Assembly (NCBI GenBank): GCA_964589445.1
Contig: CAZPQX010000003.1
Coordinates: 42,133 to 106,132, forward strand
Length of the DNA stretch: 64,000 nt
Source: an uncultured Candidatus Saccharibacteria bacterium
Lineage (GTDB): Bacteria > Patescibacteriota > Minisyncoccia > Phycocordibacterales > WO2-35-19
Reading direction: 5' to 3'
Positions 177-24,725 of the stretch are shown piece after piece. The notes beneath the pieces are model-generated. The model was not told where the DNA came from and did no database searches. It was given only the letters and a program-made list of their open reading frames with translations. Numbering within the stretch: position 1 is the stretch's first letter; each line of letters opens with the position of its first letter. A program made the position numbers and the translations under genes.

Positions 177-256
177 TTTGCCTTTTTATATAAAAATGTT
201 ACTCTAATAATAGAAGGTCCCAAAGAGGGCAGACTAACCTCCGGTAAGAGAGAGAC

Positions 257-306
257 CCCCGGTGCACACGCATACCTCCAATTTTCGCACCGGGGGCTTT
301 TTTATT
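257..306 (+). terminator. Rho-independent terminator after pyrG
   Basis: GC stem cccccggtgc...gcaccggggg followed by a T-run (cttttttatttc). Confidence 0.6.
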
Positions 307-551
307 TCTAAATTTGTGGTATCTTGTTTTTGCCGAACTCATCCTCTTTCGGCAAAACCCTTCTCCCTGAGGTTTTCGTAGAACCTTACAGCGTTTGAAG
401 GTAGGGGCAGGCGTCTTCCTCCGAGACACCTAGCCCCTCTTTTTATTTTCCTTATTTTCTGTTATTTTAAGGAGGTTAACATTGGCCCGCCCGCCATCGC
501 TACGCCCGCCTGCTATGTGTTGCTAAGCATTGCGGGCAGGCTCAGGCGTTA

Positions 552-627
552 GCGGGCGGGGAGATCGTCTAATGGCCCGCCCGCAACGCCTTGCTTGCAT
601 GGCGGACGGGTAGGACGACGGTTTCTG
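552..627 (+). pseudogene. tRNA-Gln 5'-half pseudo-copy (acceptor 5' arm, D-arm with a 35-nt GC-hairpin insertion, anticodon stem and loop up to CTG), fused directly to the GIY-YIG start
   Basis: gagatcgtctaatgg[35-nt insert]gtaggacgacggtttctg aligns to positions 1-36 of the intact tRNA-Gln at 874. It diverges with 2 indels and 1 substitution and breaks right after the anticodon, 6 nt before the GIY-YIG ATG. Confidence 0.55.
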
Positions 628-632
628 AAAAT

Positions 633-869
633 ATGAATTACACCTATGTATTAAAAAGTTTAAGGGATAATAAACTTTATATTGGGTGGACGAACGATTT
701 GAAAAGAAGGCTGGAAATGCACAATCTGGGTAAGGTTGACGCTACCAAAAATAGAATTCCGTTCGAAATTGTGTATTATGAAGCTTGCCTTGATAAGGAA
801 AAGGCAATTGAGAGGGAAAAGTATTTCAAGACTGGTTTTGGTAGAAAGTTTTTGAAAAGTAGGATTTAA
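633..869 (+). CDS. GIY-YIG nuclease family protein (UPF0213/YhbQ-like), copy 1
   Basis: MNYTYVLKSLRDNKLYIGWTNDLKRRLEMHN... contains the GIY...YIG motif plus downstream R/E/N residues. The ORF track extends the ORF to 591 through the tRNA-like sequence; the ATG at 633 is preferred. Confidence 0.8.
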   Translation: MNYTYVLKSLRDNKLYIGWTNDLKRRLEMHNLGKVDATKNRIPFEIVYYEACLDKEKAIEREKYFKTGFGRKFLKSRI

Positions 870-873
870 ATAT

Positions 874-944
874 TGCGGGATCGTCTAATGGTAGGACAAC
901 GGTTTCTGGAACCGTCTATCTAGGTTCGAGTCCTAGTCCCGCAG
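874..944 (+). tRNA. tRNA-Gln (anticodon CTG)
   Basis: Cloverleaf: acceptor TGCGGGA/TCCCGCA (U1-A72 as in bacterial tRNA-Gln), D-arm GTCT/GGAC, anticodon stem ACGGT/ACCGT with loop TTCTGGA, T-arm CTAGG-TTCGAGT-CCTAG, discriminator G; CCA not encoded. Confidence 0.9.
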
Positions 945-984
945 CCGCGATTTTTTAACGAGCGAAGCGACTGTAAAAAATCAG

Positions 985-1009
985 CGTCCTGAGCGAAGCG
1001 AAGGGCCAG
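985..1009. repeat. Conserved post-tRNA motif GTCCTGAGCGAAGCGAAGGGC (second copy at 55403-55428)
   Basis: A 21-mer repeated with 1 mismatch downstream of tRNA-Gln and downstream of tRNA-Ser; both copies are preceded by an AT-rich inverted-repeat hairpin. Confidence 0.5.
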
Positions 1010-1024
1010 ATTTTTAATGTCTGA

Positions 1025-1104
1025 AAAAATTTTGAGTCGCGGGAGAGATTCCTGAGTCCCGCAGCACTGATCGCAACTTTGATTGAAAAATTTTGAGTCG
1101 GGGT
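1025..1104. repeat. att-like direct repeat of the tRNA-Gln 3' end, copy 1, plus a truncated copy (1086-1104)
   Basis: aaaattttgagtcgcgggagagattcctgagtcccgcagcactgat; the part tcctgagtcccgcagc matches the tRNA-Gln 3' end tcctagtcccgcagcc. Confidence 0.55.
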
Positions 1105-1150
1105 CCCAGGCCTACAATCAAACTAGCTTGCAGCTTGAGACCCAATAAAC

Positions 1151-1909
1151 ATGAAAGAGCCAGAAATAATTCTAGATCCTAAAGAACTCGATATTTTAAA
1201 ATTGGTTCTTGAGGATATTAAAAAATCTTTGACCTGCGAATTTGCTATTGGTGGATCAATGGCACAAAGAGCTTTATTGCCAGAATTTGGGCAATCAAGT
1301 GAAGCAAACAAAAAGAGTGACATTGATATCGTGCTCTTGGCTGGGTCAAGAGAAAGGTGCCCAGTTTTGCATTCCATAAAAAATTATTTTTATGTTTTGA
1401 GCATTACAGAATCTTTTGATAGTTATTATTTCGGACTTGTACATAAAAAGACAAAAAAGTGGGTTGATTTATTTCCAGTCGCATATAGTCGTTCCTACTA
1501 TAATGTACGAGTAGAAGGAAAAGCTTATAAAGCAGAAACTATCTCAAGCCAAGTATTATATCTTGCTCACGATTTGCTGCGGAGAATAAAAGGCCATAAA
1601 GATGTGCGACAAAAATGGTTCAATAAAATAAAATTTCTATTCTCACAGATTAAAGATGTTACTGATTTTGAAAATGAATTTTCTTCTCATAAACAATATT
1701 TACTTGAAGATCTTCCCAGGGGGGTAAAAATACCTGAAAACGCCCATGAATTTATACAAACGGTTATTGAATGTGTCGCTCCTTTCGTTAAACTTTCTAC
1801 AAAGAGAAATTGGTTCCTCCTATTTAAAAATTATTATAAAGATTCTGTTGTTACCTCAAACGGCATCAAGGTAGATTCTAGGTTTGCTCTACTTCGAACC
1901 TTATTTTGA
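1151..1909 (+). CDS. Pol-beta-superfamily nucleotidyltransferase (minimal NTase fold; possibly aminoglycoside/lincosamide nucleotidyltransferase-like)
   Basis: FAIGGSMAQRALL...SDIDIVLL gives the GS...DxD NTase motif; 252 aa is similar in size to KNTase-type ANT enzymes. Resistance function not established. Confidence 0.5.
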   Translation: MKEPEIILDPKELDILKLVLEDIKKSLTCEFAIGGSMAQRALLPEFGQSSEANKKSDIDIVLLAGSRERCPVLHSIKNYFYVLSITESFDSYYFGLVHKKTKKWVDLFPVAYSRSYYNVRVEGKAYKAETISSQVLYLAHDLLRRIKGHKDVRQKWFNKIKFLFSQIKDVTDFENEFSSHKQYLLEDLPRGVKIPENAHEFIQTVIECVAPFVKLSTKRNWFLLFKNYYKDSVVTSNGIKVDSRFALLRTLF

Positions 1910-1940
1910 GGATGTTTGAAACATGTCGGCAGGAGCTCTT

Positions 1941-1998
1941 AAAAAATTTTGAGTCGGGGGAGAGATTCCTGAGTCCCGCAGTACTTGATTTTTTAAGA
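1941..1998. repeat. att-like direct repeat of the tRNA-Gln 3' end, copy 2
   Basis: aaaaaattttgagtcgggggagagattcctgagtcccgcagtacttgattttttaag; a tail-only copy lies at 2446-2466 and a degenerate copy at 5356-5410. Confidence 0.55.
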
Positions 1999-2035
1999 TT
2001 ATGAGAGCATAATTAGTAACAGGAAAGGGGGGTTC

Positions 2036-2302
2036 ATGTCGACTATCATGGGTCGCAAAAAAGAACCACTTAGTATTGAAAATATAAACGAGATTCTCAG
2101 AGGGTCCTATGGAGTCGAGGTTCGAGAGTGCCAAGGTGGCACCGCTCGAGTTTCGCACTTTTTGAATCCTGAAAGACAGTGGTGGGTTGATGTCAGTTCT
2201 CTTTTTAGAGAGGATGAAGTTCCTACCAAACAAGAAGTCTCAAAAAGATTAAACAAGCAGATTCCTGAGCGCAAGGCATATATCGGCGCGCGTTGCATCT
2301 AA
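2036..2302 (+). CDS. Hypothetical protein (88 aa)
   Basis: ORF with a strong SD (aggaaagggggg) upstream; no recognisable motif. Confidence 0.45.
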   Translation: MSTIMGRKKEPLSIENINEILRGSYGVEVRECQGGTARVSHFLNPERQWWVDVSSLFREDEVPTKQEVSKRLNKQIPERKAYIGARCI

Positions 2303-2498
2303 ATTAGTTGCCATGTTCTTCTAAAATAGTTCGTCTGTATTAATGTAGTTAGTAACACACAAGAGGTCAAGCCTCCAGAAGCATCCATCCAGCAGGTTCG
2401 GGTGTTTTTATTTGTCTAAAATAGTTTCAACTTCATACCAGATAGCCAGCACTTGATTTTTTAAATAAATATTATAGATTATTTTGTAGGAGAACAGA

Positions 2499-2696
2499 TT
2501 GGAAAAGCCAAACAAAATGATTCGTGTGACTCTTGACCTCATCCAAGAGGACTACAACCTCTTGGAAGGTTTAGGCGGCATAAAAGCCGTGGCGCTTAGA
2601 AAGGGCATTCGGCTCTTGGACCAACTTCGTCGAGGGGAGGTTTTCCTTCATACACAGAATGGGGACAAGATTCCCACGGAAATTGTCCTCCCTTAA
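2499..2696 (+). CDS. Small hypothetical protein (65 aa; possible DNA-binding)
   Basis: ORF with an SD (gtaggag) upstream; start is TTG at 2499 or ATG at 2517. Confidence 0.35.
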   Translation: MEKPNKMIRVTLDLIQEDYNLLEGLGGIKAVALRKGIRLLDQLRRGEVFLHTQNGDKIPTEIVLP

Positions 2697-2801
2697 TGTA
2701 CTCAACCGCTCACACAAACAGTCTTGCTGACTCGTTTCGGTGGGCTGTTTTTGTTTGTAAAAAATGATTAAAGTTGAATGTCAAAATGATATAATCCAAA
2801 T

Positions 2802-3437
2802 ATGAAAATAAACTTTATTTATAATCAAGACAAAGATATAGACTGTTTACTGAGTAAAGGCCCTGGCTCCACTAATCAACCAGGAAGTATGACAAAGCCT
2901 TACGAATCTCTACTCCTTTTTACTTCAGACATAAATAATAAAGAGAATGTCAGAGAATTTGTAAGAAAATATATTAGAGAAAATAATATAGATATAGAAA
3001 AAAATAAGAATGAAATAGAGAATAATTGGAATCTAATTTCTGGAGAGTTTAATAGAAGAGCTGAAGAAATATTTGGGATAATAATAGAAGATGAGGTAAA
3101 TGCATACCTGACAATTACAGGAAGGCACCCTTATAATGTAGGGAATAAATACTTTTATGTATCAGCCGAAAAGAAAAATGTAAATAAAAATATAATGCAT
3201 GAATTATGGCATTTTTATACTTGGTATAGGTTTGGAGATTTTAATAAAGTTGACCCTGTTAGATATAACGACGCGAAGGAGTCACTGACGGCAATACTAA
3301 ATATAGTATTTCGGGATCTTATGGACGGGGGATATGATAAAGGGTATTCGCAACATCAAAATCTAAGAAATATAGCGATTGATACTTGGGACAAAACCAA
3401 AGATATTGGTGTGGTCTGGAATGAGCTGATCGTATAA
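2802..3437 (+). CDS. HEXXH-motif protein (putative Zn metallopeptidase, ImmA/IrrE-like?) in an AT-rich island
   Basis: NIMHELWHFYTW carries an HExxH motif; the ORF is very AT-rich relative to its flanks. Confidence 0.4.
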   Translation: MKINFIYNQDKDIDCLLSKGPGSTNQPGSMTKPYESLLLFTSDINNKENVREFVRKYIRENNIDIEKNKNEIENNWNLISGEFNRRAEEIFGIIIEDEVNAYLTITGRHPYNVGNKYFYVSAEKKNVNKNIMHELWHFYTWYRFGDFNKVDPVRYNDAKESLTAILNIVFRDLMDGGYDKGYSQHQNLRNIAIDTWDKTKDIGVVWNELIV

Positions 3438-3513
3438 ATTATTAACGTATTTCCCCAGATGGATAATTTGATGCGATATCTTTAATTTTGTGTACTTGCA
3501 TTTAAAACCTAAA

Positions 3514-3549
3514 TATGTTATACTATATAAAGAATCATTCGCCACATTA
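3514..3549 (+). pseudogene. Remnant of a GIY-YIG gene C-terminus (VILYKESFATL)
   Basis: Matches the C-terminal VLKYNESFATL of the downstream GIY-YIG copy at both protein and nucleotide level. Confidence 0.45.
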
Positions 3550-3619
3550 ACTTTTGGGGGTAAGGTGGCCCCAAGAGCTAGGCCCCAAAGGCCAAAGTCC
3601 CGAGTGAATTCTCCACCTG

Positions 3620-3659
3620 ATTGGGCCGCCGGAAATTCCAGCGGCCCAATACTTTTTGG
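3620..3659 (+). terminator. Rho-independent terminator (perfect 10-bp stem attgggccgc/gcggcccaat followed by T-run)
   Basis: attgggccgccggaaattccagcggcccaatactttttgg. Confidence 0.6.
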
Positions 3660-3665
3660 TACAAT
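3660..3665 (+). promoter_or_regulatory. -10 box TACAAT, 7 nt upstream of the GIY-YIG copy 2 ATG (near-leaderless)
   Basis: tacaatagtacacATG. Confidence 0.4.
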
Positions 3666-3672
3666 AGTACAC

Positions 3673-3960
3673 ATGAAGCGGACAAGTGAATCTACGAAAT
3701 ATTTTGTTTACATCCTCGAATGTGCAGACAAGTCTCTCTATGTCGGCTGTACCAATAATCTAGAAAAAAGAGTTCACGAGCACAACAATTTGAAATCGGG
3801 TGCACACTATACAAAAATCCGAAGGCCTGTGGTTTTAAAATATAATGAATCCTTCGCTACCTTGCTTGAGGCGAGAGGTAGGGAGGCCGAAATAAAGGGA
3901 TGGGTAAAAAGTAAAAAAGTAGCACTTATAGAAGGTAAAGAAAATCTCCGTAAATATTGA
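3673..3960 (+). CDS. GIY-YIG nuclease family protein (UPF0213/YhbQ-like), copy 2
   Basis: MKRTSESTKYFVYILECADKSLYVGCTNNLEKRVHEHN...; near-identical paralog of the 8894 copy. Confidence 0.85.
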   Translation: MKRTSESTKYFVYILECADKSLYVGCTNNLEKRVHEHNNLKSGAHYTKIRRPVVLKYNESFATLLEARGREAEIKGWVKSKKVALIEGKENLRKY

Positions 3961-4019
3961 AAAGTTTGATTTTTATTGTGAAATAATGTAAATTCACTAT
4001 GGAAATTGTTAGAGCTTAA

Positions 4020-5225
4020 TTGCTCGTTTTGACAATACCACGACTACAAAGAAAGGTTGAAGCAAAAATGGTTAGCAGTTCTAAGAAGGCGGAGCTAGAC
4101 ATGCGGCGTGAGGCTGTTCATGTCCTAGTGTCCTTGGGGCTGTCGTATCAAGACATTGCCACCGCTATAGCCGTAGATATCGGCTCGGTGGTGAACGATG
4201 TGAAGAAGATCGCTCCCGTTACGATGAGGTTTGAGGTTGAAGGGCTGACCGGCCCACAGCGTCGCGACAAGGCGTTTAATCACTCCTTGCGCGAGTGGCT
4301 TTTGGTTAGGACTGAGAGCTACTCCAAGAGGCTTGGTGTTGATCGGGATGTGATGGACTGTATTGAATCCGCACTCTCAGTTTGCCTCGACATGAGGCGA
4401 CTCAACGGCATCGCCGAAGGTGTCGTCGCATTCGTCAATACATTGCTTTACCCGGTTGATCCGCCAGAGTATCTGCCTTACCGGCATTTACTCAGGGCTA
4501 TCTTTGGAGAACCTACCAAGCTTAAGGAGAAGAAGCCCTATTCGGCTCTGTTGTGTCACTTTGGATATTTCATTCATGGCTCGGGTTTTGAGTTTACCCG
4601 CGATTCCATCGCAGAGCAGCTTGCTACGCTGGCCATGGAAGAGTTCCGGCAAAACTTTCGCGCCCCACTCGGCGAGAGTGTTAAAATCGCTTTTGAGGAA
4701 GCTCTCAAGACAATAGACAAAAGGGAGGCAGAGGTCCTCGATCTCCGCTTTGGTCTTTCGGGGAAGAGACTAACCCCCGGTGAACTTCGTGGTCGTTTCG
4801 CTGTGACTGATGAGAGGATCCGACAAATCGAGGCAAAGGGATTGCGCAAGCTTCGTCACCCCGAGCGTTCTCGTCGTCTCCGTCCTTTTATCGAGTCTCC
4901 CTTCAGTTTTACCCAAAGGACACTCGATGAGATGTTTGTCCGTCCGGCCCCTATTCCTATTGAGGTTTCGGATACGGCCAAGCTTCTTTCTCAGGAAATC
5001 GAGGAGCTTGAGCTATCAACCCGTTCCTACCATAGCCTTAAGGCTATGGGCGTTCATACTGTCGGCGACCTCGTGCAGAAAACGGAGAGAGAAATGTTGT
5101 CCACGGGGATTCGCTTTGGGTTTGGGCGCAAGTCTTTCAATGAAGTAAAGGAGATTTTGCGTTCCATGGGGCTCTCATTTGGCATGAAGCTTGAGGACGG
5201 TGTTTTGAAGCGACCGGCTGACTAA
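4020..5225 (+). CDS. Chimeric transcription-factor-like protein: N-terminal HTH, sigma-70 region 4.2, and an RNA polymerase alpha C-terminal-like domain
   Basis: [56 protein letters not shown] matches sigma-70 region 4.2 almost residue for residue. The following [63 protein letters not shown] matches RpoA alpha-CTD ([27 protein letters not shown]...LASRGLSLGMRLE). No sigma region 2 is recognisable. Start is probably ATG at 4068. Confidence 0.7.
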
Positions 5226-5452
5226 GTCTGATCGTGGTATCAATGCCTGTGCTTGTTCTTTGGAGCAGGCACGGGCTCTCATCAAAGTTTTTTCTAAAAG
5301 AGAAATTTTTGATGAGATTTTTTCTAAAAAAGATTGAAAAAGGAGGGGGCTGCCTGAAAATTTTTGAGTTGAGGAAAGGGGAGGGATTCTTGAGCCCTGC
5401 AGTATTTGACATGCTAGTATATATTATGATATAATATAAGAAGAGGTTAATA

Positions 5453-5737
5453 ATGAAGAAGCTTTTCCTGCTCAAGAATTTGGGTCAGCCTACTCATGGC
5501 GAGACCCGTGCCATGCTCGTTTCCGCAGTCGACGAACTTGATGCACGAAACTGGGCCGGGTCGACGCCGCATGTCCCCAGCCACAACACGGGGGATCCCG
5601 AAGGGATCAATGGGTATGGGGACGAGGGTGCAAATGTGTGGAGAGATTCCACAAAATCATCTTGCACTGAAATCGCGATCTCATTCTCCACCAATTTGGG
5701 GTTCGGTGTAGTCCTAACGGACTACATCTACGCTTAA
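5453..5737 (+). CDS. GC-rich small hypothetical protein (94 aa)
   Basis: -10 TATAAT at 5432-5437 and SD aagagg upstream; GC-rich body; no recognisable motif. Confidence 0.35.
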   Translation: MKKLFLLKNLGQPTHGETRAMLVSAVDELDARNWAGSTPHVPSHNTGDPEGINGYGDEGANVWRDSTKSSCTEIAISFSTNLGFGVVLTDYIYA

Positions 5738-5914
5738 CTTGCCGCAGTACGAATTTAAAGGCACGACGTAACCAACCGTCGGCCTTTTCTGTTTGTAAAA
5801 ACAAAAGAGGATATATTCAAAATTCGGTAGGATAGAAAACTACTTATTGATAAGTTAGGATTACTAAAATCAGTAAGGGTTGAATATTGAGTAATAAAGT
5901 TATATTTTGTCTGT

Positions 5915-7009
5915 ATGAACAAGTTGTTCCAATCAGAAAAATATTTAAACTATCTAAAAAGAAGGGCTAGAAAAGAGAGAAAAGCAAAGCTAAGATATGA
6001 GTTATATATAAAAGCTAAGAACATACTTAAGTATAAAAAGACTATACCAACGTTCAGGCATCTGCGGGATTGGCCAGTTAATATAGAGGCTCCTGAAATT
6101 TTTTCACTCATTAAAAATAGTGAGGAGACAATATCTTTTATAAATAAAATAGGAGAAAATTTTAGAAAAAGAAATAAGGTTTTTATTCTTCTAAATAAGG
6201 TTGAAGAAATAGATTATGATGCAATTGCTGTATTGCTTTCCGTCATGATTCTATTTAGGACGAGTCATATACCTTTTAATGGAGATAGGCCAGTTGCGGA
6301 GTTGGCAAAAAATAAACTTGATGATTCTGGTTTTTTTGATGAATTATACAAGAAAGACAGAAGAGGGATGTCTTATGTTATAGGAAAAGACAAACAAATA
6401 TTTTCAAGTTCTGAGAAAAAGGTTGAACCATCTTTGGGTTTACCTGTTATGAAATATGCTTCCGAATTTATATGGGAAGAAAAAAGGATTTGTAAGGGTT
6501 TGCAAAGAGTATTGCTTGAGTTGATGCATAATACTCATAATCATGCCGGAGGTTATTTGAGTAGGGGTATGGAAAGGTGGTGTTTTTTTATAAATCACAA
6601 CAAAGATAAAAAAGTTGTTGAATTTGTTTTTGTTGACTATGGAGTGGGAATATTCAATAGTTTGAATAAAAAAGAAAAAGGAAATAAATGGTATGATTGG
6701 CAAAATAAACTAAAGAGTGTTTCTGGGTTACCTATAAAAATGACAAATGAAGAAATTTTAAAAAAACTATTAAATGGAGAAATGCATGTGACTGTTACGG
6801 GAGAAGATTTTAGAGGGAAGGGTTTGCCAGGAATTAAGCAAGTTTTAGATAGAAATCAAATAAGTAACCTCTGTATTATAAGCAATAACACCTATGCAGA
6901 AGTGTCAAACAATAAGTACAAATTATTAAGACAAGATTTTAGTGGAACTTTTATTTATTGGGAACTGTGCTATTCTAATAAAAATCATCCGTGGACAATA
7001 AAATTATAA
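5915..7009 (+). CDS. GHKL/HATPase_c-type ATPase (histidine-kinase-like ATP-binding fold)
   Basis: N-box LLELMHNTHNHAGG, G1 VDYGVGI (DxGxG), G2 GEDFRGKGLPGI; AT-rich. Confidence 0.5.
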   Translation: MNKLFQSEKYLNYLKRRARKERKAKLRYELYIKAKNILKYKKTIPTFRHLRDWPVNIEAPEIFSLIKNSEETISFINKIGENFRKRNKVFILLNKVEEIDYDAIAVLLSVMILFRTSHIPFNGDRPVAELAKNKLDDSGFFDELYKKDRRGMSYVIGKDKQIFSSSEKKVEPSLGLPVMKYASEFIWEEKRICKGLQRVLLELMHNTHNHAGGYLSRGMERWCFFINHNKDKKVVEFVFVDYGVGIFNSLNKKEKGNKWYDWQNKLKSVSGLPIKMTNEEILKKLLNGEMHVTVTGEDFRGKGLPGIKQVLDRNQISNLCIISNNTYAEVSNNKYKLLRQDFSGTFIYWELCYSNKNHPWTIKL

Positions 7010-7332
7010 AAATATCAATAGCTAAAGATTTTTCGGTGACACCAGGAGCTCGCTACAAGAAAGAGGGTGATTTTTCAGGTGAAGAATTTAGGGATAAAAT
7101 CCTAGAACCTGCTTTTTTGAGGGCAAAAAAAGAAGGTTGTAAGTTGGTTGTAGATTTAGATGGAACAATTGGGTACGGGACAAGCTTCTTAGAGGAAGTT
7201 TTTGGTGGTCTCGCAAGAACGCAGGGCCCAAATGAAGTCTTTTCCGTATTAGAAGTTTTATCTACAGAAGAAGAATATTTAAAAGAGGACGTTCTTGGGT
7301 ATATAAAAGATGTTAAAGTGGACAAATCTTAA
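6991..7332 (+). CDS. STAS-like (DUF4325-type) small protein, partner of the GHKL ATPase
   Basis: GEEFRDKILEPAFLRAKKEGCKLVVDLDGTIGYGTSFLEEVFGGL fits the G..FR..I.....V.LDF.GV....SF.DE..G.L pattern; overlaps upstream gene by 19 nt; start uncertain. Confidence 0.45.
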   Translation: MDNKIIKISIAKDFSVTPGARYKKEGDFSGEEFRDKILEPAFLRAKKEGCKLVVDLDGTIGYGTSFLEEVFGGLARTQGPNEVFSVLEVLSTEEEYLKEDVLGYIKDVKVDKS

Positions 7333-16978: not shown

Positions 16979-17016
16979 CTGGCTGGCTCAAAAGCCGCGC
17001 TTTCGGGCGCGGCTTT

Positions 17017-17370
17017 TTGTTTGGGTTTAAAAATGCACTAAGAAGTGGTAGAGTTTGGGGGATGAAGGAAATCTTTTTGGATATAGGGTTTATACTTCTC
17101 ATGTATCTCTTGGCTTTTTTGTTTGGTTTTGGGTATAGGGCTGTTTTGAAATATTTTGCCAAAGGGACTGTGAGAGGGGTGAATAAAAATATTGGGAAGG
17201 TAGGGCGCCTTGTGCGCTTCGCTATAGGTGTGCTACTACTCATCCTCGCCATCACCACCACATGGAGCCCGCTCACTCTCTTCTTCTCTGGCTTCGCCAT
17301 CTTCGAAGCTCTCTTTAGCTGGTGCGGCTTCTACGCCGCCATTGGCAAGAATAGCTGCCCAGTGGGGTAA
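17017..17370 (+). CDS. DUF2892/YgaP-like small membrane protein
   Basis: TM-rich; C-terminal ...WCGFYAAIGKNSCPVG is typical of DUF2892. Start is probably ATG at 17062. Confidence 0.45.
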   Translation: MFGFKNALRSGRVWGMKEIFLDIGFILLMYLLAFLFGFGYRAVLKYFAKGTVRGVNKNIGKVGRLVRFAIGVLLLILAITTTWSPLTLFFSGFAIFEALFSWCGFYAAIGKNSCPVG

Positions 17371-17375
17371 AAGTT

Positions 17376-19889
17376 ATGAAAAATAAAGAAGCAAAAGCAC
17401 GAATAAAAATAAACAAACTCCTTGAACAAGCAGGTTGGCGTTTTTTTGATAATGAAAAGGGACAAGCAAATATTTCGCTTGAGCCGAATGTAAAACTTAC
17501 CCAAAAGGACATTGACGCTTTTGGTGAGGATTTTGAATCTACAAAAAACGGATTTATTGATTTTTTATTGCTTGATGAAAAAGGTTTTCCGTTTGTTATT
17601 TTAGAAGCCAAAAAAGAATATAAAAACCCGCTCGACGGCAAAGAACAGGCGAGAAAATACGCTCATACCGAAAACGCCCGCTTTGTTATTCTTTCAAACG
17701 GCAATCTTCACTATTTTTGGGATTTAGAACGAGGTGATCCTGAAATCATCACCGAATTTCCGACACAAGAATCTTTGAAACACAGACAGGATTTCAAACC
17801 AGATAATCAGCGTTTGGCAGACGAAGAAGTCAGAGACGATTATATTGCACTTACGCAAAACCCGAATTTCAAAGATGATCCTCGCTACAAACAAGAAGAA
17901 ACGCGAGAGCAATATCTTTGGGAAGAAAATTTGCGAATTTTGCGACCTTATCAGCTTAAAGCAATACACGCTTTGCAAAAATCCGCCGAAGCTGGAAATG
18001 ATCGTTTCCTTTTTGAAATGGCAACGGGGACAGGAAAAACGCTTATTTCCGCCGCCGTCATCAAACTGTTTTTGCGAACAGGCAACGCCAAAAGAATTTT
18101 GTTTTTAGTGGATCGCTTAGAATTGGAAGATCAAGCGCATAAAAACTTTGTCCGCTATTTGAGCAATGATTTTTCATCAGTTATTTACAAACAAAACCGC
18201 GATGACTGGAAAAAAGCGGAGGTTGTCATTTCAACAGTTCAAAGTCTTTCGGCGCAAGATAAATACAAAAAACTTTTTTCGCCGACTGATTTTGATTTGA
18301 TTATCGCCGATGAATCACACCGCGCAATCGGCGGAAACTCGCGCGCAGTTTTTGAATACTTTATCGGCTACAAATTGGGCTTAACTGCAACACCGAAAGA
18401 CTATTTGAAAAATGTTGATCCACAGAAACTTTCACAAAAAGACCCGCGCGCTTGGGAAAGACGACAACTCTTGGACACTTACACGACATTCGGCTGTAAA
18501 AATGGCGAGCCAACTTTCCGATTTAGCTTGCTTGACGGCGTAAAAGAAGGATTTTTGATCAATCCTATTGTTTCAGACGCGCGAACCGACATCACCACCG
18601 AACTACTCTCGGAAAAGGGCTACGCGGTTATGGTTGAAGATGAAGACGGCACAGGAAGCGAAGAAACATTTTTCCAAAAAGATTTTGAAAAGAAATTCTT
18701 TTCCGAAAAAACAAATCGCGTCTTTTGCCAAACACTCATTGAAAATTCTCTCAAAGACCCAATAAGCGGAGAAATCGGCAAGACCATTGTGTTTTGCGTG
18801 AGCCAAAAGCACGCTTCCAAAATTACCCAAACGCTCAACCAAATGGCGAGCCAACTTTGGCCCGACAAATACAATTCTGATTTTGCGTTGCAAATAACTT
18901 CAAACATTGCCGATAGCCAGCAATTCACAATCAACTTCGCAAACAATAACCTAAACGGACACACCAAGTTTTTGGAAAACTATAAATCCAGCAAAACGAG
19001 GGTTTGCGTAACTGTTGGAATGATGACCACGGGCTACGACTGCCAAGACATTTTGAATCTTGCGCTTATGCGCCCGATTTTCTCGCCGACTGATTTTATT
19101 CAGATCAAAGGACGAGGAACAAGAAAATTCACCTTTGAATATATGGACGAATACGGCGAAAAGCACAAAAAGCCAAAAGACCATTTCAAATTTTTTGATT
19201 TCTTCGCTAACTGCGAATATTTTGAAGAAAAATTTGATTATGACGAGGTTTTGCAACTGCCTATCAAGCAAAAAGGAACAGGCGGAGAAGGACCAGTCGG
19301 TGTTGACATTGATGAATTTGAAACTTTCAATCCCGATAAAGTAAAAACTCTTACGGAAACACCTGTCGGAATAGAAGGGATGAAAGTTGATCGCAAACTA
19401 TTTGAAAAAGCTCGCGAAGAATTGCAAAAAGACACTGAGGTAAAATCTGCCGTGGAAAACGAGCAATGGGACAAAGCGGTGCAAATTATGCGCGACAAAT
19501 ACGAAGACAAACCGCAATTATTCTTGAATCTTGAAAAAATCCGCAAGAGCGAAAACCTTGATCGCCGTATTTCTTGGCGCGAATTCTTGGAACGAGCCTT
19601 CGGCTTGATTGACGTTTTCAAATCCAAAGACGAAAAACTGGAAGAAGAATGCGAAAAGTTTATTTCAATTTACAAGCCCGAAAGCAAATATGTTCCGCAT
19701 ATCAAAAACTATCTGAAAGCGTATGTTACGGATGAAAAATTCCGCGACATTATCAACAACAAACATTTCGCCGACTTGAATGTTTATGCGGGGTTTACAA
19801 TGGCGGAATTTAAGGAATTAAACGGATGGCGGGAAACTGTGCCTGAATATGTGAAAGATTATGTTCCCGTTAATCAGTTTATGAGGTAG
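17376..19889 (+). CDS. hsdR: Type I restriction enzyme R subunit (HSDR_N PD-(D/E)xK nuclease plus SF2 helicase)
   Basis: N-terminal FIDFLLLDEKGFPFVILEAKKE (D..EAK nuclease); helicase motif I MATGTGKT; motif II DESHR. Confidence 0.75.
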   Translation: MKNKEAKARIKINKLLEQAGWRFFDNEKGQANISLEPNVKLTQKDIDAFGEDFESTKNGFIDFLLLDEKGFPFVILEAKKEYKNPLDGKEQARKYAHTENARFVILSNGNLHYFWDLERGDPEIITEFPTQESLKHRQDFKPDNQRLADEEVRDDYIALTQNPNFKDDPRYKQEETREQYLWEENLRILRPYQLKAIHALQKSAEAGNDRFLFEMATGTGKTLISAAVIKLFLRTGNAKRILFLVDRLELEDQAHKNFVRYLSNDFSSVIYKQNRDDWKKAEVVISTVQSLSAQDKYKKLFSPTDFDLIIADESHRAIGGNSRAVFEYFIGYKLGLTATPKDYLKNVDPQKLSQKDPRAWERRQLLDTYTTFGCKNGEPTFRFSLLDGVKEGFLINPIVSDARTDITTELLSEKGYAVMVEDEDGTGSEETFFQKDFEKKFFSEKTNRVFCQTLIENSLKDPISGEIGKTIVFCVSQKHASKITQTLNQMASQLWPDKYNSDFALQITSNIADSQQFTINFANNNLNGHTKFLENYKSSKTRVCVTVGMMTTGYDCQDILNLALMRPIFSPTDFIQIKGRGTRKFTFEYMDEYGEKHKKPKDHFKFFDFFANCEYFEEKFDYDEVLQLPIKQKGTGGEGPVGVDIDEFETFNPDKVKTLTETPVGIEGMKVDRKLFEKAREELQKDTEVKSAVENEQWDKAVQIMRDKYEDKPQLFLNLEKIRKSENLDRRISWREFLERAFGLIDVFKSKDEKLEEECEKFISIYKPESKYVPHIKNYLKAYVTDEKFRDIINNKHFADLNVYAGFTMAEFKELNGWRETVPEYVKDYVPVNQFMR

Positions 19890-19900
19890 CCAAAAATATT

Positions 19901-21769
19901 ATGCTTGATCAGACTACAAAACGAAAACTAGACTCTGCCCGACAAATTCTTGTCGGCAAAGTGCCAGACCCCAAGGCGCAAGTTGAGCAAATCACGACTG
20001 CGCTTGTCTATAAGTTTATGGACGATATGGACAAGGAATCGGAAGAGCTTGGCGGAGAGGCGAAATTTTTTGCCAACAGTTTTTCACAGTATTCTTGGAC
20101 GAAACTTATGAACAACAAACTTTCTGGGCAAGAACGCCTTGATTTATATGTTCAGGCAATTACGAATATGTCTAAAAACCCGCATATTCCGCAATTGTTT
20201 CGTGATATTTTCAAAGGCGCGTTTTTGCCATACAACGATCCTCGCACACTTTCGCTATTTCTCAAAGAGATCAATGAATTTAATTACGAACATAGCGAAA
20301 ACTTGGGCAATGCTTTTGAATATTTGCTTTCTATTCTCGGAAGCCAAGGCGACGCGGGACAATTCCGCACACCTCGCCACATTATTGATTTTATAGTTGA
20401 AGTGGTTGATCCAAAAAAGAACGAAACAATCCTTGATCCCGCTTGCGGAACGGCTGGATTTTTGATTTCTGCATACAAACATATTTTGAGGCAGAATAAA
20501 GAAAAATCTCTCACGCCAGACGAAAAATTGAAATTGATGAATAATCTTGCGGGCTATGATATTTCGCCCGATATGGTGAAATTGGCGCTCGTAAATTTGT
20601 ATTTACATGGCTTTCCAGATCCAAAAATTCACGAATATGATTCACTCACAAGCGAAAAGCGGTGGGGAGAAACATTTGATGTAATAATGGCAAACCCGCC
20701 CTTTACAACACCAAAAGGCGGAGTTAGTCCACATTCAAGGTTTAATGTAAGCGTGAAAAGAACTGAGGTTTTATTTGTTGATTATATTGTCAATCATTTA
20801 AATATTTCTGGACGCTCTGGTATTGTTGTTCCCGCTGGAGTGGTTTTTAAAGATGATTCTGGTTATGTCAAAATAAGAAAAAATCTTATTGATAGCAATC
20901 TACTCTGGGCTGTAATTTCGTTGCCTGGCGGAGTTTTTAACCCATATTCCAATGCTGAAACAAGCATTTTGTTTTTAGATAAAAAAGTTGCCCAAAAAAC
21001 AAGTAAAATTTTGTTTGTAAACATCAACAATGATGGTTATAGCCTTGGGAACACAAGAAATCCCATTAAAGATAATGATCTGCCTTCGGCTTTGGAATTA
21101 TTGAAAAATTATGCTAATGGGAAAAATATAAACAGTAGCCAAGCGTTATTTGTTGAAAAAGAGGATATAAAAAATAATTATTACATTCTTGTCGGCGATA
21201 GATATAAAAAGAATGGTGATAAAAAAACAAAAAATCATCTGCCGTTGAGTAAGCTTTTATTGCGGAATAAAACGCCAATAAATATTGAGAGCAATATTGT
21301 GTATAAAAGAGCAACCATAAAACTTTATGGGAAAGGTCTTTCAATAAGAGATGAGGAGATAGGGTCAAAGATAAATACAAAAAAACAATTTCTTATCAAA
21401 AAAGGTCAGCTACTACTTTCAAAAATTGATGCCCGAAATGGAGCGTTTGGAATAGTCCCTCAAGAATTAGACGGGGCAATTATTACTGGAAATTTTTGGG
21501 CTTTTGATATAAATGAAAATTTTGTAAACAAAGATTATTTGTCTTATCTGCTCTCTTCTAAAAAATTCTATTCAATTTGTAAAGATGCCAGCTCTGGGGT
21601 TACAAACAGAAAATACTTAAACGAAACTAAATTCTTGGCAATGGAAATTGAATTACCAAAAATTGAAGAGCAGAACAAATTGATAACGGAATTAAATGGT
21701 TACAAGAGTAAAATTGAGGAGTTGCAGAAAGAGCTTGATTCCAGAATAGCAAAAGAATGGGATGTATAA
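19901..21769 (+). CDS. hsdM: Type I RM fused methyltransferase-specificity protein (HsdM N6-adenine MTase plus a single HsdS-type target-recognition domain)
   Basis: GQFRTPRHI...DPACGTAGFL (SAM binding) and NPPF catalytic motif. The C-terminal ~190 aa (GAFGIVPQELDGAIITGNFWAF...) resemble an HsdS half-TRD. Confidence 0.7.
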   Translation: MLDQTTKRKLDSARQILVGKVPDPKAQVEQITTALVYKFMDDMDKESEELGGEAKFFANSFSQYSWTKLMNNKLSGQERLDLYVQAITNMSKNPHIPQLFRDIFKGAFLPYNDPRTLSLFLKEINEFNYEHSENLGNAFEYLLSILGSQGDAGQFRTPRHIIDFIVEVVDPKKNETILDPACGTAGFLISAYKHILRQNKEKSLTPDEKLKLMNNLAGYDISPDMVKLALVNLYLHGFPDPKIHEYDSLTSEKRWGETFDVIMANPPFTTPKGGVSPHSRFNVSVKRTEVLFVDYIVNHLNISGRSGIVVPAGVVFKDDSGYVKIRKNLIDSNLLWAVISLPGGVFNPYSNAETSILFLDKKVAQKTSKILFVNINNDGYSLGNTRNPIKDNDLPSALELLKNYANGKNINSSQALFVEKEDIKNNYYILVGDRYKKNGDKKTKNHLPLSKLLLRNKTPINIESNIVYKRATIKLYGKGLSIRDEEIGSKINTKKQFLIKKGQLLLSKIDARNGAFGIVPQELDGAIITGNFWAFDINENFVNKDYLSYLLSSKKFYSICKDASSGVTNRKYLNETKFLAMEIELPKIEEQNKLITELNGYKSKIEELQKELDSRIAKEWDV

Positions 21770-24120
21770 TTTATCGAAACATGAAGCTGAAAAGTATCAA
21801 AAAAATCAAAGGTTATAAATCGTTCCAAGATTTTGATTGGCAACCTTTTTTGAATAATGAAACTTTTCATGATGAAGTAAATATTCTTTATGGCGAAAAT
21901 GGAAGTGGTAAAAGCTCAATTGCCAACCTTTTGAAAAGTGTTTCAGAAAATAAAGATTTTGGTAAGTACATACCAGCCGAAGCGTGTTTGGTATTTGATG
22001 ACGGCGAGAAAAAATATCCAGTAAATAACGATTGGGACAATAAAATTTCAAAAGGTTCCATTTTGTTTTTTGATCGCGAATTTATTGATAAAAATGTTCA
22101 TTTGGGACACAGACGAGACACAACGCAAAACGGACAAGAACAAGAATCGGGCAAGATGATTATCGAGTTTGATAGCGACGCTATCAATTTGCGTGGTGTA
22201 AGAGATACGGCTAAAAAAGCGAAAGACGAACAAGACCAGAAAATTAAAGATTTCAATTCTGCGAATAAGGATTCATTGGCTTTTGCTTTGACTGACAATG
22301 AACAGCCGTTTTTCAAAAACTACAAAGATAAAAGTGAAGAAGAAATCAAAACAGCAAAACAAACATTGGGAAAGGAGAAAAAAGAAGCCGAAAAGAGCCT
22401 TGAAACAGATCAGGGATTGCAAAAGAAAGTCGCCAGTATCCAAAGAGACATAAAAAGCTTGCCGACAGAAGAAGTTGAAATTTCCTTTTCTGATGAGAAA
22501 ACATATCAGGCAATTTTTGATTTTGACCTAAAAGAGCAGGCAAAAATAGAAGCCGAGCAGACTTTGATTGATAAAGTTAAATCGCATAAATCATTCTTTG
22601 AAACTGGTTTTGAAATTAGAAAGACACACCAAAATCAGTGTCCTTTTTGCCAATCTGAAAATGAAGAAGCAGGAATCAAAAACATCGTTGATCTATACGA
22701 GCAAATTTATGACACGACATATAAAACACAAGTGCATCAATTTGAAAAAGATAAACAAGTCCTGCTTGATGAAATTTCACAAATTACACAAGCCGTTTCC
22801 GATTTTGATTTGAACAGTATTTTTCTTGAACTTAAAAAATTAGACCAAAATTACAAAATACCAAATATCTACTCTGTTGATGACGAAAAAACATACAAAA
22901 AACCAGCGGTGAAAGAGATAAAAGAGTTGAGTGGTAAAATAACGAAACTTGCGAAGCCAAGCAAAGAGGACATCAAAGAGCTTTATGCAAAAGTAAAAAC
23001 TGAATTTGAGGCGATTGAAGCATTTTTCAAGTCAATTAGTGATTTTGTAGATCAAAAGAACAAGCTCATTTCTAAATTCAAATCCGACAACACCGATGAA
23101 AAACTTCAAGCACGAATTGTTTCAAGCGGTAAAAGAATTGCTGAAATTGAAAAAGAGTTGGTTTTTATAAATGGAAACAAGATAAAGGAACAACAAAAGA
23201 AAGAGCAAAAAGAAAAGGAACAAAAAGCTTTGCAAGATGTTTTTGCTACGCTAAAAACAGAATACGATACAGCCTTAAAAGAATACGAAGATCATTGTTC
23301 GACAAAGGCTTTTTCAAACCTTTTGTCTAAAATTCAAGAATATTTCAAAAATTTCAATTTTAGTTTTAGGCTTGAACCAAAAACAGCACCAACAGGAAAC
23401 AAAACCGAATTTCCGTTTGCGTTCAAGGTTTTGGATTTTGAGGGAAACGAGCGAGATTTCAAAGAGGGACTTTCCGAGGGGGAAATTCAGGTTTTGTCCC
23501 TTTGTTTTTTCTTTGCGTTTCTTGATATACAAAAAGATAAAAAACAAAAGGTGCTTGTTTTTGACGACCCGATCACGAGTTTGGATAATAGCAATTTGAG
23601 TTGTCTCGTTGATTTAATCGCCGAAGAGCAAAAAAACTTTTCACAAATTTTTGTTTTTTCTCACCACAGAACCTTTTTCAAATTTTTAAGAAAGCGATTT
23701 GATAAAAATTGCCATGAATACAATCTAATCCGAAACAAAAAAGAATTTGGCGGAAGTTTTATTTGCAAAAGTAAATCTGATAAATTTTTGGCTAAGCTGA
23801 AAAATTTTGAAACTGACTTGGCGAAAATTCCGCCAGCAAGTCTTGATGTTGAATTGAAAGTCGTTGAATATGGGCAATATTTGCGATATGAGGTTGAAAG
23901 GCATATCAAAAATAATTTATTGCACTGGAACGCAAATGATTTCCCAACGGCGATTGATGGTGTAAAATGTAATAAAGAGATAGATGACGGCGATTTGGAC
24001 AAAATCAAGCAAATATATTCGTTTTGCAACTGGACGACTTCGCATGTTGATGTAGGAGATGATCATGGACTTGGACAACTGAAAACAAAAATCGCCGATT
24101 TTGTAGCAATTGTTAAATAG
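21757..24120 (+). CDS. RloC-like Rad50/SbcC-type ABC ATPase with a coiled-coil zinc hook; candidate anticodon nuclease
   Basis: Walker A GENGSGKSS; long Lys/Glu coiled coil containing a CPFC (CxxC) hook; signature LSEGEIQVLSL; Walker B/D-loop VLVFDDPITSLD; H-loop FSHH. The C-terminal ~150-aa domain has R-x3-E...H candidates (LRYEVERH). Positioned right after hsdR/hsdMS as in restriction-linked RloC. Start may be ATG at 21781. Confidence 0.55.
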   Translation: MGCIIYRNMKLKSIKKIKGYKSFQDFDWQPFLNNETFHDEVNILYGENGSGKSSIANLLKSVSENKDFGKYIPAEACLVFDDGEKKYPVNNDWDNKISKGSILFFDREFIDKNVHLGHRRDTTQNGQEQESGKMIIEFDSDAINLRGVRDTAKKAKDEQDQKIKDFNSANKDSLAFALTDNEQPFFKNYKDKSEEEIKTAKQTLGKEKKEAEKSLETDQGLQKKVASIQRDIKSLPTEEVEISFSDEKTYQAIFDFDLKEQAKIEAEQTLIDKVKSHKSFFETGFEIRKTHQNQCPFCQSENEEAGIKNIVDLYEQIYDTTYKTQVHQFEKDKQVLLDEISQITQAVSDFDLNSIFLELKKLDQNYKIPNIYSVDDEKTYKKPAVKEIKELSGKITKLAKPSKEDIKELYAKVKTEFEAIEAFFKSISDFVDQKNKLISKFKSDNTDEKLQARIVSSGKRIAEIEKELVFINGNKIKEQQKKEQKEKEQKALQDVFATLKTEYDTALKEYEDHCSTKAFSNLLSKIQEYFKNFNFSFRLEPKTAPTGNKTEFPFAFKVLDFEGNERDFKEGLSEGEIQVLSLCFFFAFLDIQKDKKQKVLVFDDPITSLDNSNLSCLVDLIAEEQKNFSQIFVFSHHRTFFKFLRKRFDKNCHEYNLIRNKKEFGGSFICKSKSDKFLAKLKNFETDLAKIPPASLDVELKVVEYGQYLRYEVERHIKNNLLHWNANDFPTAIDGVKCNKEIDDGDLDKIKQIYSFCNWTTSHVDVGDDHGLGQLKTKIADFVAIVK

Positions 24121-24160
24121 TCCCGCCGTCCCGCCGAAAAGTTTTGGGGGCGAAGCCCAA

Positions 24161-24212
24161 GCAGGCGGGCAAAAAGGAAGGGGGTTGGGGGAAGGGATTT
24201 TTGCCCGCCTGC
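24161..24212. terminator. Strong hairpin (15-bp perfect stem gcaggcgggcaaaaa/tttttgcccgcctgc)
   Basis: Perfect inverted repeat with a G-rich loop downstream of the RloC-like gene. Confidence 0.55.
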
Positions 24213-24260
24213 TTCCGTTCTCCTTCTTTTTAAGCAAAGAAAAATTGTTAAAATAAATTT

Positions 24261-24725
24261 ATGAGTATAGAATTTTCTAAAAATTTAATTAAAGGAAAGA
24301 TTGCAGAAGTTGTGTTTGAACAAATGATTCGTGAAGAAGGCAAATATACAGTTATCCCTTTTGGTTATGAGCATACAGTACCAACACTTTCTCAATACCA
24401 GCATTTGGCGGTAGTAAAACAGATAATGGATAATATTTCTGATGCCCCTGATTTCGCTCTTATTTCAGAAGATAAAACAAAAGTTTATTTAGTTGAAGTT
24501 AAATTTCAAAGTAGATTAAATATTAATGATTTAGAAGAATACGCAATAAAATTATGTGATAGGTGGGAGTATCCCTGGCTTTTTGTTGCAACACGTGACG
24601 GTTTTTATAATGGATTATGTAGAGACATAATAAAAGAAAGACGAATCCCAGAACTAACAGAAAATTGGGTTAAAAAAGAACGACAAGAGGAATATTTGAA
24701 ATTACTAAACGAGTTTGAAAAATAA
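24261..24725 (+). CDS. PD-(D/E)xK-fold nuclease (Hjc/restriction-endonuclease-like)
   Basis: GKIAEVVFEQ...PDFALISEDKTKVYLVEVK gives the E...D...E-V-K arrangement. Confidence 0.45.
   Translation: MSIEFSKNLIKGKIAEVVFEQMIREEGKYTVIPFGYEHTVPTLSQYQHLAVVKQIMDNISDAPDFALISEDKTKVYLVEVKFQSRLNINDLEEYAIKLCDRWEYPWLFVATRDGFYNGLCRDIIKERRIPELTENWVKKERQEEYLKLLNEFEK

Follow-up and report, generated by a model that had tools for sequence, protein, structure and literature searches.

The 64,000-nucleotide stretch of contig CAZPQX010000003.1 analyzed here (the window) carries on its forward strand a gene for an RloC-like protein, placed immediately behind two genes of a type I restriction-modification (R-M) system, hsdR and a fusion of hsdM with half of hsdS. 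[quoted passage not shown] RloC and PrrC are textbook examples of back-up immunity that disables translation, but few orthologues have been studied, and these only from cultivable Firmicutes and Proteobacteria. A sequence-only reading of the window had proposed that the gene encodes a Rad50-type ATPase whose coiled coil bears a zinc hook, with a putative anticodon nuclease at the C-terminus. The results presented here indicate that, by its architecture and motifs, the protein very likely belongs to the RloC family. It is also likely, with somewhat less assurance, that it is an RloC in full, with a Rad50-like ABC ATPase, a coiled coil with a zinc hook, and a C-terminal anticodon-nuclease domain of the HEPN type.

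The RloC-like gene and its conserved motifs

An uninterrupted open reading frame (ORF) of 787 residues runs from 21757 to 24120 on the forward strand. It contains every motif that the sequence-only reading had quoted, each at its exact position, while the reverse-strand ORFs within the same interval are short (at most 122 residues) and unsupported. The ORF is therefore real, but the gene probably starts later than had been proposed. The upstream in-frame ATG at 21757 overlaps the stop codon of hsdM-S. Met9 is kept in at least 97% of 118 close homologues (at least 54% identical to the RloC-like protein), the usual length of homologues is 779-780 residues, and independent gene calls on another assembly with an identical locus gave a product of 779 residues. 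On these three grounds the ATG at 21757 was dropped, and the second ATG, at 21781, is most likely the true start (Table 1). Residues are numbered here in the 787-residue frame unless marked Met9, in which case the position is lower by eight.

Table 1. Genes, motifs and domains of the hsdR-hsdM-S-rloC locus, in window coordinates
Feature	Position	Strand	Residues and supporting evidence
hsdR, type I restriction endonuclease R subunit, 837 residues, first gene of the island	17376..19889	+	Pfam ResIII 1.9e-39, HSDR_N/HSDR_N_2, Helicase_C; PADLOC REase_I 1.7e-55
hsdM fused to a single target-recognition domain (half HsdS), 622 residues	19901..21769	+	Pfam N6_Mtase 1.4e-57, HsdM_N, Methylase_S (residues 477-606)
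RloC-like gene	21781..24120	+	779 residues from Met9; Pfam AAA_13 4.3e-37; more than 200 homologues
Walker A / P-loop GENGSGKS	21892..21915	+	46-53; Lys52 is Lys44 in Met9 numbering; G, K and N invariant
Q-loop EQESG	22138..22152	+	128-132; E128, Q129, S131 and G132 in at least 97% of 118 homologues
Ascending (N-terminal) coiled-coil arm, predicted	22135..22626	+	127-290; AlphaFold helices 119-282 (Met9), pLDDT mostly 82-93
Zinc-hook motif CPFC (C295, C298), predicted coiled-coil apex	22639..22650	+	295-298, within NQCPFCQSE
Descending (C-terminal) coiled-coil arm, predicted	22660..23346	+	302-530; AlphaFold helices 294-522 (Met9), pLDDT 82-92
ABC signature LSEGE	23470..23484	+	572-576; invariant in 118/118
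Walker B and D-loop VLVFDDPITSLD	23551..23586	+	599-610; DDP...SLD invariant
H-loop / switch SHH	23659..23667	+	635-637; His636 invariant (118 homologues)
C-terminal all-helical domain of 143 residues, putative HEPN-type anticodon nuclease	23689..24117	+	AlphaFold domain model, six helices
R710-Y-E-V-E714-R-H-I-K718, putative Arg and Glu of the anticodon-nuclease triad and HEPN-type E-x3-K	23884..23910	+	Long helix 2 of the domain (model helix 54-77)
C757-N758-W-T-T-S762-H763, putative catalytic His after Ser	24025..24045	+	C-terminal end of helix 3 (model helix 100-118)
Perfect 17-nucleotide inverted repeat (AAGCAGGCGGGCAAAAA / TTTTTGCCCGCCTGCTT), GC-rich, 22-nucleotide loop, T-rich tail	24159..24214	+	39 nucleotides past the rloC stop; candidate terminator

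The N-terminal part of the protein had been taken for a Rad50-type ABC ATPase, and both sequence and model agree. Residues 39-669 match Pfam AAA_13 (4.3e-37; profile positions 16-604 of 713), the family that also includes PrrC. In six relatives (54-63% identical) the profile aligns unbroken as far as positions 691-697 of 713 and so spans their C-terminal domain. The full-length AlphaFold model, with a predicted local distance difference test (pLDDT) score of 79.7, has a split alpha/beta head, and its best PDB match by Foldseek is Rad50 (7zr1_C, E = 4.6e-9), followed by the heads of SMC, cohesin and condensin. The insert, that is, the stretch between the Q-loop and the signature motif, measures about 404 residues, and 27.7% of these are Lys or Glu. 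At its apex the modeled hook loop occupies residues 283-293 (Met9), flanked by the two long helices that form the predicted arms.

Conservation was followed in the 118 close homologues, in 37 distant full-length relatives with identities down to 23%, and in a diverse alignment of 35 sequences reaching down to 19%. Among the close homologues, Walker A, CPFCQ, LSEGE, DDPxxSLD and the histidine of the H-loop are invariant. The CPFC hook is present in all 118, and both of its cysteines remain invariant down to 19% identity; the distant full-length relatives have CPxC in all but two cases (CLVC and CFVC). This conservation, together with the position of the motif in a loop between long helices, supports the earlier view of it as a CxxC hook within a coiled coil. 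The residues invariant in the 35-sequence set include K44, C287, C290, S565, E568, D595, D596, P597 and D602 of the ATPase and hook, and R702, E706, K710 and C749 of the C-terminal domain, where N750 and H755 are kept in at least 90% of the sequences (all Met9). The 37 distant relatives are collinear with the window protein over about 780 residues and keep the pattern R-X3-E-X48-59-H.

The candidates that the sequence-only reading had named for the Arg/Glu/His triad of the nuclease were drawn from LRYEVERH (residues 709-716, with RYEVE at 710-714) and SHVDVGDDH (762-770, with SH at 762-763). R710, E714 and H763 bear up, but H716 is not conserved, being F, Y or H, and H770 is so only in part (102 of the 118 homologues). 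R710, E712, E714 and C757 are found in all 118 sequences, and N758 and H763 in 117. The pattern R-X3-E-X36-52-SH arises in 0.34% of shuffles of the C-terminal 147 residues. Hundreds of full-length homologues conserve the motif set, which is far beyond chance. On sequence grounds, the locus carries the complete RloC architecture, intact and apparently under purifying selection, in a form common in Patescibacteria/CPR bacteria.

More than 200 full-length homologues were found by database search, the majority from Patescibacteria/CPR metagenomes, and several of these had been named 'wobble nucleotide-excising tRNase' by the Joint Genome Institute (JGI). A defense of this kind had been thought rarely reported from reduced CPR-like genomes. 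It is true that a literature search found no discussion of RloC in Patescibacteria, but the family itself is common in CPR metagenomes and has already been annotated automatically by JGI. What is new here is a member of a sequence-divergent, CPR-centered clade; the RloC architecture is textbook knowledge, and members are already annotated as RloC by public pipelines. The two nearest copies found in genomes, at 94% and 90% identity, are in metagenome-assembled genomes labeled Gammaproteobacteria and Saprospiraceae, and represent either mis-binned CPR contigs or recent horizontal transfer.

The C-terminal domain and the case for an anticodon nuclease

Davidov and Kaufmann (2008) defined RloC by PrrC-like ABC motifs, a Rad50-like insert of coiled coil with a CXXC zinc hook, and a C-terminal Arg-X3-Glu-X36-52-His in which a Ser often precedes the His (PMC2610378). 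The characterized members, from Geobacillus kaustophilus (GkaRloC) and Acinetobacter baylyi (AciRloC), are zinc-responsive anticodon nucleases that excise the wobble nucleotide and are activated through a DNA-dependent ATPase (PMC2610378, PMC3458546). The window protein has all of the ABC motifs (Walker A, Q-loop, signature, Walker B/D-loop and H-loop). Its insert is modeled as a coiled coil with a central CPFC loop at 295-298, predicted to bind zinc, and its nuclease motif reads R710-X3-E714-X48-S762-H763. It shares with RloC the order of domains (ABC head, hooked coiled coil, C-terminal nuclease), a similar total length, and the character of a laterally mobile single-gene cassette. In GkaRloC, Lys44 of Walker A is essential for activation of the nuclease, and Asp572 of Walker B is essential too (PMC3458546); the hook mutant C291G is hyperactive and needs neither ATP nor DNA. 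The corresponding positions of the window protein (Met9) are K44 for K44 of GkaRloC, C287/C290 for the hook cysteine C291, D595/D596 for D572, and R702, E706 and H755 for the nuclease residues R692, E696 and H737. Given that these positions match, the two proteins are collinear within about 20 residues, a correspondence taken from published residue positions and motifs rather than from a residue-by-residue alignment.

The PrrC and RloC nucleases have been assigned the HEPN fold by Anantharaman et al. (PMC3710099). The C-terminal domain of the window protein was modeled by AlphaFold as an all-helical domain of six helices, with moderate confidence (pLDDT 71.5). The top two Foldseek matches of this model are 7bxo_F, a HEPN toxin, and 1wwp_A, another protein with this fold (probability 0.97 and 0.96; E = 0.26-0.29), and further HEPN toxins follow lower in the list. 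HEPN domains have an all-alpha core of four helices: helix 2 carries an acidic E-x3-[KR] motif, helices 2 and 3 are often separated by an insert, and a catalytic His ends helix 3 (PMC3710099). The helix order of the model fits this description: model helix 54-77 carries R710, E714 and K718, model helix 85-94 takes the place of the insert and has no residues of note, and H763 follows directly after model helix 100-118. E714 and K718, both invariant in the 35-sequence alignment, supply the acidic helix-2 motif. The likeness to HEPN ribonucleases (the HepT toxins 7bxo and 1wwp, the KEN domain and RnlA) thus extends, in the model, to the all-helical bundle and to E-x3-[KR] in helix 2; unlike them, the window protein has N758-x4-H763 in place of Rx4-6H, and a conserved Arg, R710, in helix 2.

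In some HEPN families an Arg in helix 2 may stand in for the Arg of Rx4-6H (PMC3710099), and R710 may replace it here. A reading of RYEVERH as the HEPN motif itself, R710-x5-H716, was rejected because of the variability of H716. The predicted catalytic residues are R710, E714 and H763, probably together with K718 and N758. Neither a loss of the triad nor an unrelated C-terminal fold was encountered: the triad is conserved, and the only high-probability fold matches are to HEPN proteins.

The C-terminal domain was also compared with relatives outside the CPR. An hhalign comparison of the C-terminal domains of the CPR clade with those of a Firmicute clade labeled RloC (by NCBI for Fontibacillus, and by JGI) superposed the R, E and H columns over 131 columns (P = 0.0068). 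The proteins examined from this Firmicute clade (Bacillus sp. V3-13, Paenibacillus) have 770 residues, CPFC near residue 267 and CIRPLLE…YSKK[FY]HHD. A plasmid protein of Arcobacter (794 residues) has CPFC at residue 287 and RNVLE…WRSHH. For a Moellerella plasmid protein of 862 residues, the BLASTP alignment extends through the C-terminal domain (high-scoring segment pair 413-750, E = 1e-14), where the columns for R, E and C match. When a Bacillus-clade relative was used as the seed of a homology search, no Geobacillus match appeared. In tblastn searches, plasmid sequences gave only 'AAA family ATPase' entries and phage sequences no match. The Moellerella gene is situated on the Moellerella wisconsensis plasmid pXJ22MSE2-1 (2722-11355) in the order hsdM, hsdS, the gene for the 862-residue AAA_13 protein (CPLC hook, REAWE...RGH), and hsdR. 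The plasmid is conjugative, the locus is beside a Tn7-like element, and the protein is labeled only 'AAA family ATPase'.

Several results weigh against an anticodon nuclease of the RloC type, in addition to the approximate nature of the correspondence with GkaRloC. The AAA_13 match of the window protein itself ends at residue 669, at profile position 604 of 713. The isolated C-terminal domain sequence matches no Pfam family, HEPN families included, and a profile of it found only chance-level matches to KaiC and Cry6 among PDB sequences. The HEPN fold matches are not statistically significant (best E = 0.26, template modeling score about 0.5) and come from a model of only moderate pLDDT, and the hhalign match between the CPR and Firmicute clades is modest (score 22; reported probability 5.6%). 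The canonical HEPN Rx4-6H is absent, since the corresponding stretch reads N758-W-T-T-S-H763, without Arg. PADLOC places the family only under PDC-S06, a candidate group with an embedded AAA ATPase. PDC-S06 is the best match for the window protein and for all of the distant relatives (E down to 1e-35; models of 727-862 residues), most of these matches span the ATPase without reaching into the final 100-150 residues, and the group itself is a guilt-by-embedding candidate without a described mechanism.

The comparison with PrrC adds to these points. The nuclease domain of EcoPrrC has 11 essential residues according to Meineke and Shuman, which include H295, H297, K299, H315, R320, N321, E324, R349, N352 and H356, and of which they state H295, R349 and N352 to be conserved in RloC as well. 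By inspection of the 118- and 35-sequence sets, His295, His315, Asn321 and Arg349 have no evident equivalent in the window family: R710 is followed by Tyr, none of the positions 4-7 residues before H763 holds an Arg, and no His upstream of R710 is invariant. N758 is a possible counterpart of Asn352, offset by one. Of these EcoPrrC residues, only the Arg/Glu/His triad and this offset Asn near the His are evident.

The overall likeness to EcoPrrC, the tRNA-Lys anticodon nuclease of the EcoprrI type Ic R-M locus of E. coli, consists in an ABC-ATPase N-domain (AAA_13) joined to a C-terminal Arg/Glu/His nuclease, and in the placing of the gene inside or beside the operon of a type I R-M system, suggesting a second line of defense coupled to restriction. 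Unlike the window protein, PrrC has about 400 residues, with an ABC N-domain of about 260, and lacks the insert of coiled coil and zinc hook. Conversely, the window protein lacks the Arg that follows the Walker A Thr in PrrC (the motif here being GENGSGKSS). It also has no PrrC box and no LARP motif (KYGDSNKSFSY), and nothing resembling the latter occurs in its C-terminal domain. The gene order also differs, being hsdR, hsdM-S, rloC in the window and hsdM, hsdS, prrC, hsdR in the PrrC locus. Moreover, PrrC is always found within the type I R-M locus that silences it, whereas linkage to R-M genes is not conserved in the window family.

Divergence of the C-terminal domain, which the sequence-only reading had remarked on, is evident in that the isolated domain has no Pfam family, its hhalign match is modest, and several PrrC-essential residues are without evident equivalents. 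In addition, a search of 1.84 billion representatives with a profile of the C-terminal 143 residues yielded only 68 clusters at 50% identity, and the full-length matches among these are the distant relatives that reach down to 23% identity. The domain in this version is therefore narrowly distributed, and it sets the window protein apart from the known RloC proteins. Such divergence suits the alternative that the protein is an ABC-ATPase/HEPN abortive-infection protein of the wider AAA_13/PDC-S06 group, built like RloC but with a nuclease that cuts another RNA (mRNA, rRNA or another site in tRNA). The lack of evident equivalents of H295, H315, N321 and R349, the replacement of Rx4-6H by N-x4-H and the candidate status of the PADLOC family point in the same direction, and HEPN domains include the indiscriminate mRNases RnlA and LsoA (PMC3710099). 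We nevertheless consider this alternative unlikely. The R-X3-E...SH triad is the sole feature common to all anticodon nucleases characterized from the PrrC and RloC families, and here it is both intact and invariant; the architecture is collinear with that of GkaRloC, and pipelines based on RloC orthology place the family in RloC.

It is much less probable still that the C-terminal domain is non-catalytic, serving a regulatory function or the binding of RNA or protein, and that the protein is a Rad50-like sensor of DNA ends that modulates the adjacent type I enzyme. Certain HEPN domains are no longer catalytic and serve only to bind ligands (PMC3710099); the Arg of the canonical Rx4-6H is absent here, and in the window the gene adjoins hsdR and hsdM-S in close coupling. 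However, the polar set R710, E714, K718, C757, N758 and H763 is conserved down to 19% identity, as is typical of an active site, and GkaRloC and EcoPrrC cannot dispense with the matching residues for catalysis (PMC2610378). Most relatives are not beside R-M genes, so the function cannot depend on this R-M partner. A Rad50/SbcC-type ATPase for the repair of DNA double-strand breaks is effectively refuted: the split ABC head, the long antiparallel coiled coil with its apical CXXC hook, the structural match to Rad50 and then SMC heads, and weak NCBIfam matches to Rad50 and RecF all recall such proteins, but those scores are far under their cutoffs (26 versus 700 bits and 38.6 versus 172 bits), no gene for an Mre11/SbcD nuclease was found in the island or its flanks, the coiled coil is much shorter, the conserved extra C-terminal domain is absent from Rad50 and SbcC (PMC2610378), and the gene resides in a low-GC defense island and has a patchy, mobile distribution.

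The restriction-modification island

The RloC-like gene is the third gene of a compact block. Gaps of 11 nucleotides separate hsdR, hsdM-S and rloC (the last counted from 21781), and no terminator-like site was found between these three genes. A strong terminator is located at 16990-17017, ahead of the hsdR block. The inverted repeat at 24159-24214 is a candidate for the terminator that closes the unit, although its fold energy is no better than that of shuffled sequences (z = -0.44). From this arrangement, the three genes are probably co-transcribed. The GC content is 40% for hsdR, 36% for hsdM-S, 34% for rloC and 30% for the next ORF, orf154, versus 44.7% in both flanks. The flanking genes are ordinary and encode a haem-oxygenase-like protein, a YgaP-like membrane protein, a histidine phosphatase, FMN reductase and MsrB.

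HsdR also matches the NCBIfam model for EcoAI/FtnUII-type R subunits (1.5e-72, under the curated cutoff). The HsdM-S fusion is matched in PADLOC by MTase_I over residues 2-448 (4.2e-101) and by Specificity_I over residues 444-614, against model positions 4-174 of 382 (4e-31). The island contains no separate hsdS gene. Since HsdM carries one target-recognition domain and no separate hsdS is present, the fusion protein would form a symmetric M2S2-like enzyme. Assignment of the methyltransferase as MADS mad2, and of the ATPase as mad3, was rejected; the type I methyltransferase models score 337 bits versus 133, and NCBIfam MAD2 scores 109 against a cutoff of 720.

As with RloC in general, linkage of the family to type I R-M genes is occasional and not obligatory. 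Among published rloC copies, 8 of 72 are linked to R-M genes (PMC2610378), and an HsdM homologue was found upstream in about 7 of about 40 loci fetched for the full-length family. Other relatives stand alone, are beside a serine recombinase, or follow a GmrSD/HNH gene together with transposases. The window gene thus differs from most RloC genes in being co-oriented, and probably co-transcribed, with an R-M system, a minority situation for RloC. In a metagenome-assembled genome of Candidatus Yanofskybacteria (220-7191), hsdR (69%) and hsdM-S (66%) closely resemble those of the window, but the RloC-like gene that comes after them has an identity of only 26%. This comparison suggests that the slot behind this R-M module exchanges ABC-nuclease cargo.

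Directly downstream of rloC, orf154 (24261-24725, forward strand) encodes 154 residues with a faint match to PDDEXK_11 (E = 0.08) and to no other family. It has a PD-(D/E)XK-like pattern, with PDF at 63-65 and EVK at 79-81, and a homologue of 48% identity adjoins a distant AAA_13 relative in another locus. It may be another defense-island gene.

A putative back-up to restriction

By analogy with GkaRloC and EcoPrrC, the gene behind the R-M system probably provides an anti-phage suicide switch that backs up restriction. At rest, the protein would form dimers with intramolecular zinc-hook joints, in which the zinc hook/coiled coil and the ATPase keep the nuclease silent (PMC2610378, PMC3458546). 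During phage attack, DNA ends and ATP hydrolysis would serve as the trigger; a further possible trigger is failure or inhibition of the adjacent type I R-M enzyme, possibly by phage anti-restriction factors. The released nuclease would cut the anticodon loops of tRNAs in a metal-independent transesterification that leaves 2',3'-cyclic phosphate ends, and may excise the wobble nucleotide. Translation would then stop and the infection would abort. With regard to the actual target, tRNA anticodon loops are somewhat more probable than not.

A bolder proposal, which we regard as speculative and rather improbable, is that the Patescibacteria-centered clade is a distinct RloC subfamily with a remodeled HEPN site, consisting of N-x4-H, an invariant Cys beside the Asn, and a ladder of R, E and K in helix 2. 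Its members would cut another RNA, or at another position, than GkaRloC or PrrC do, and in loci like that of the window they may join, in a single operon, PrrC-like silencing by a cis-encoded type I R-M enzyme with RloC-like sensing of DNA ends through the zinc hook. This would amount to widespread abortive infection in ultra-small episymbionts.

No new kind of system is revealed by the locus. In Patescibacteria/CPR, the RloC architecture travels as a single-gene cassette that is at times docked behind a type I R-M operon, and it provides a concrete candidate for an abortive-infection defense in organisms with tiny genomes and minimal sets of tRNA. The family could also help to define which HEPN residues of PrrC and RloC are required, as a natural variant of the active site. 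Its importance would grow if the remodeled site corresponds to another target, or if the coupling to R-M genes is regulatory.

Two further ORFs of the window, both on the forward strand, are recorded here as minor observations. Between valS and tsaD, an ORF of 981 residues (49915-52860) has no NCBIfam match at E <= 1e-10. At 4020-5225, an ORF of 401 residues with a TTG start matches models of sigma-70 region 4 (residues 218-292) and of the C-terminal domain of the RNA polymerase alpha subunit (318-393), an unusual pairing.

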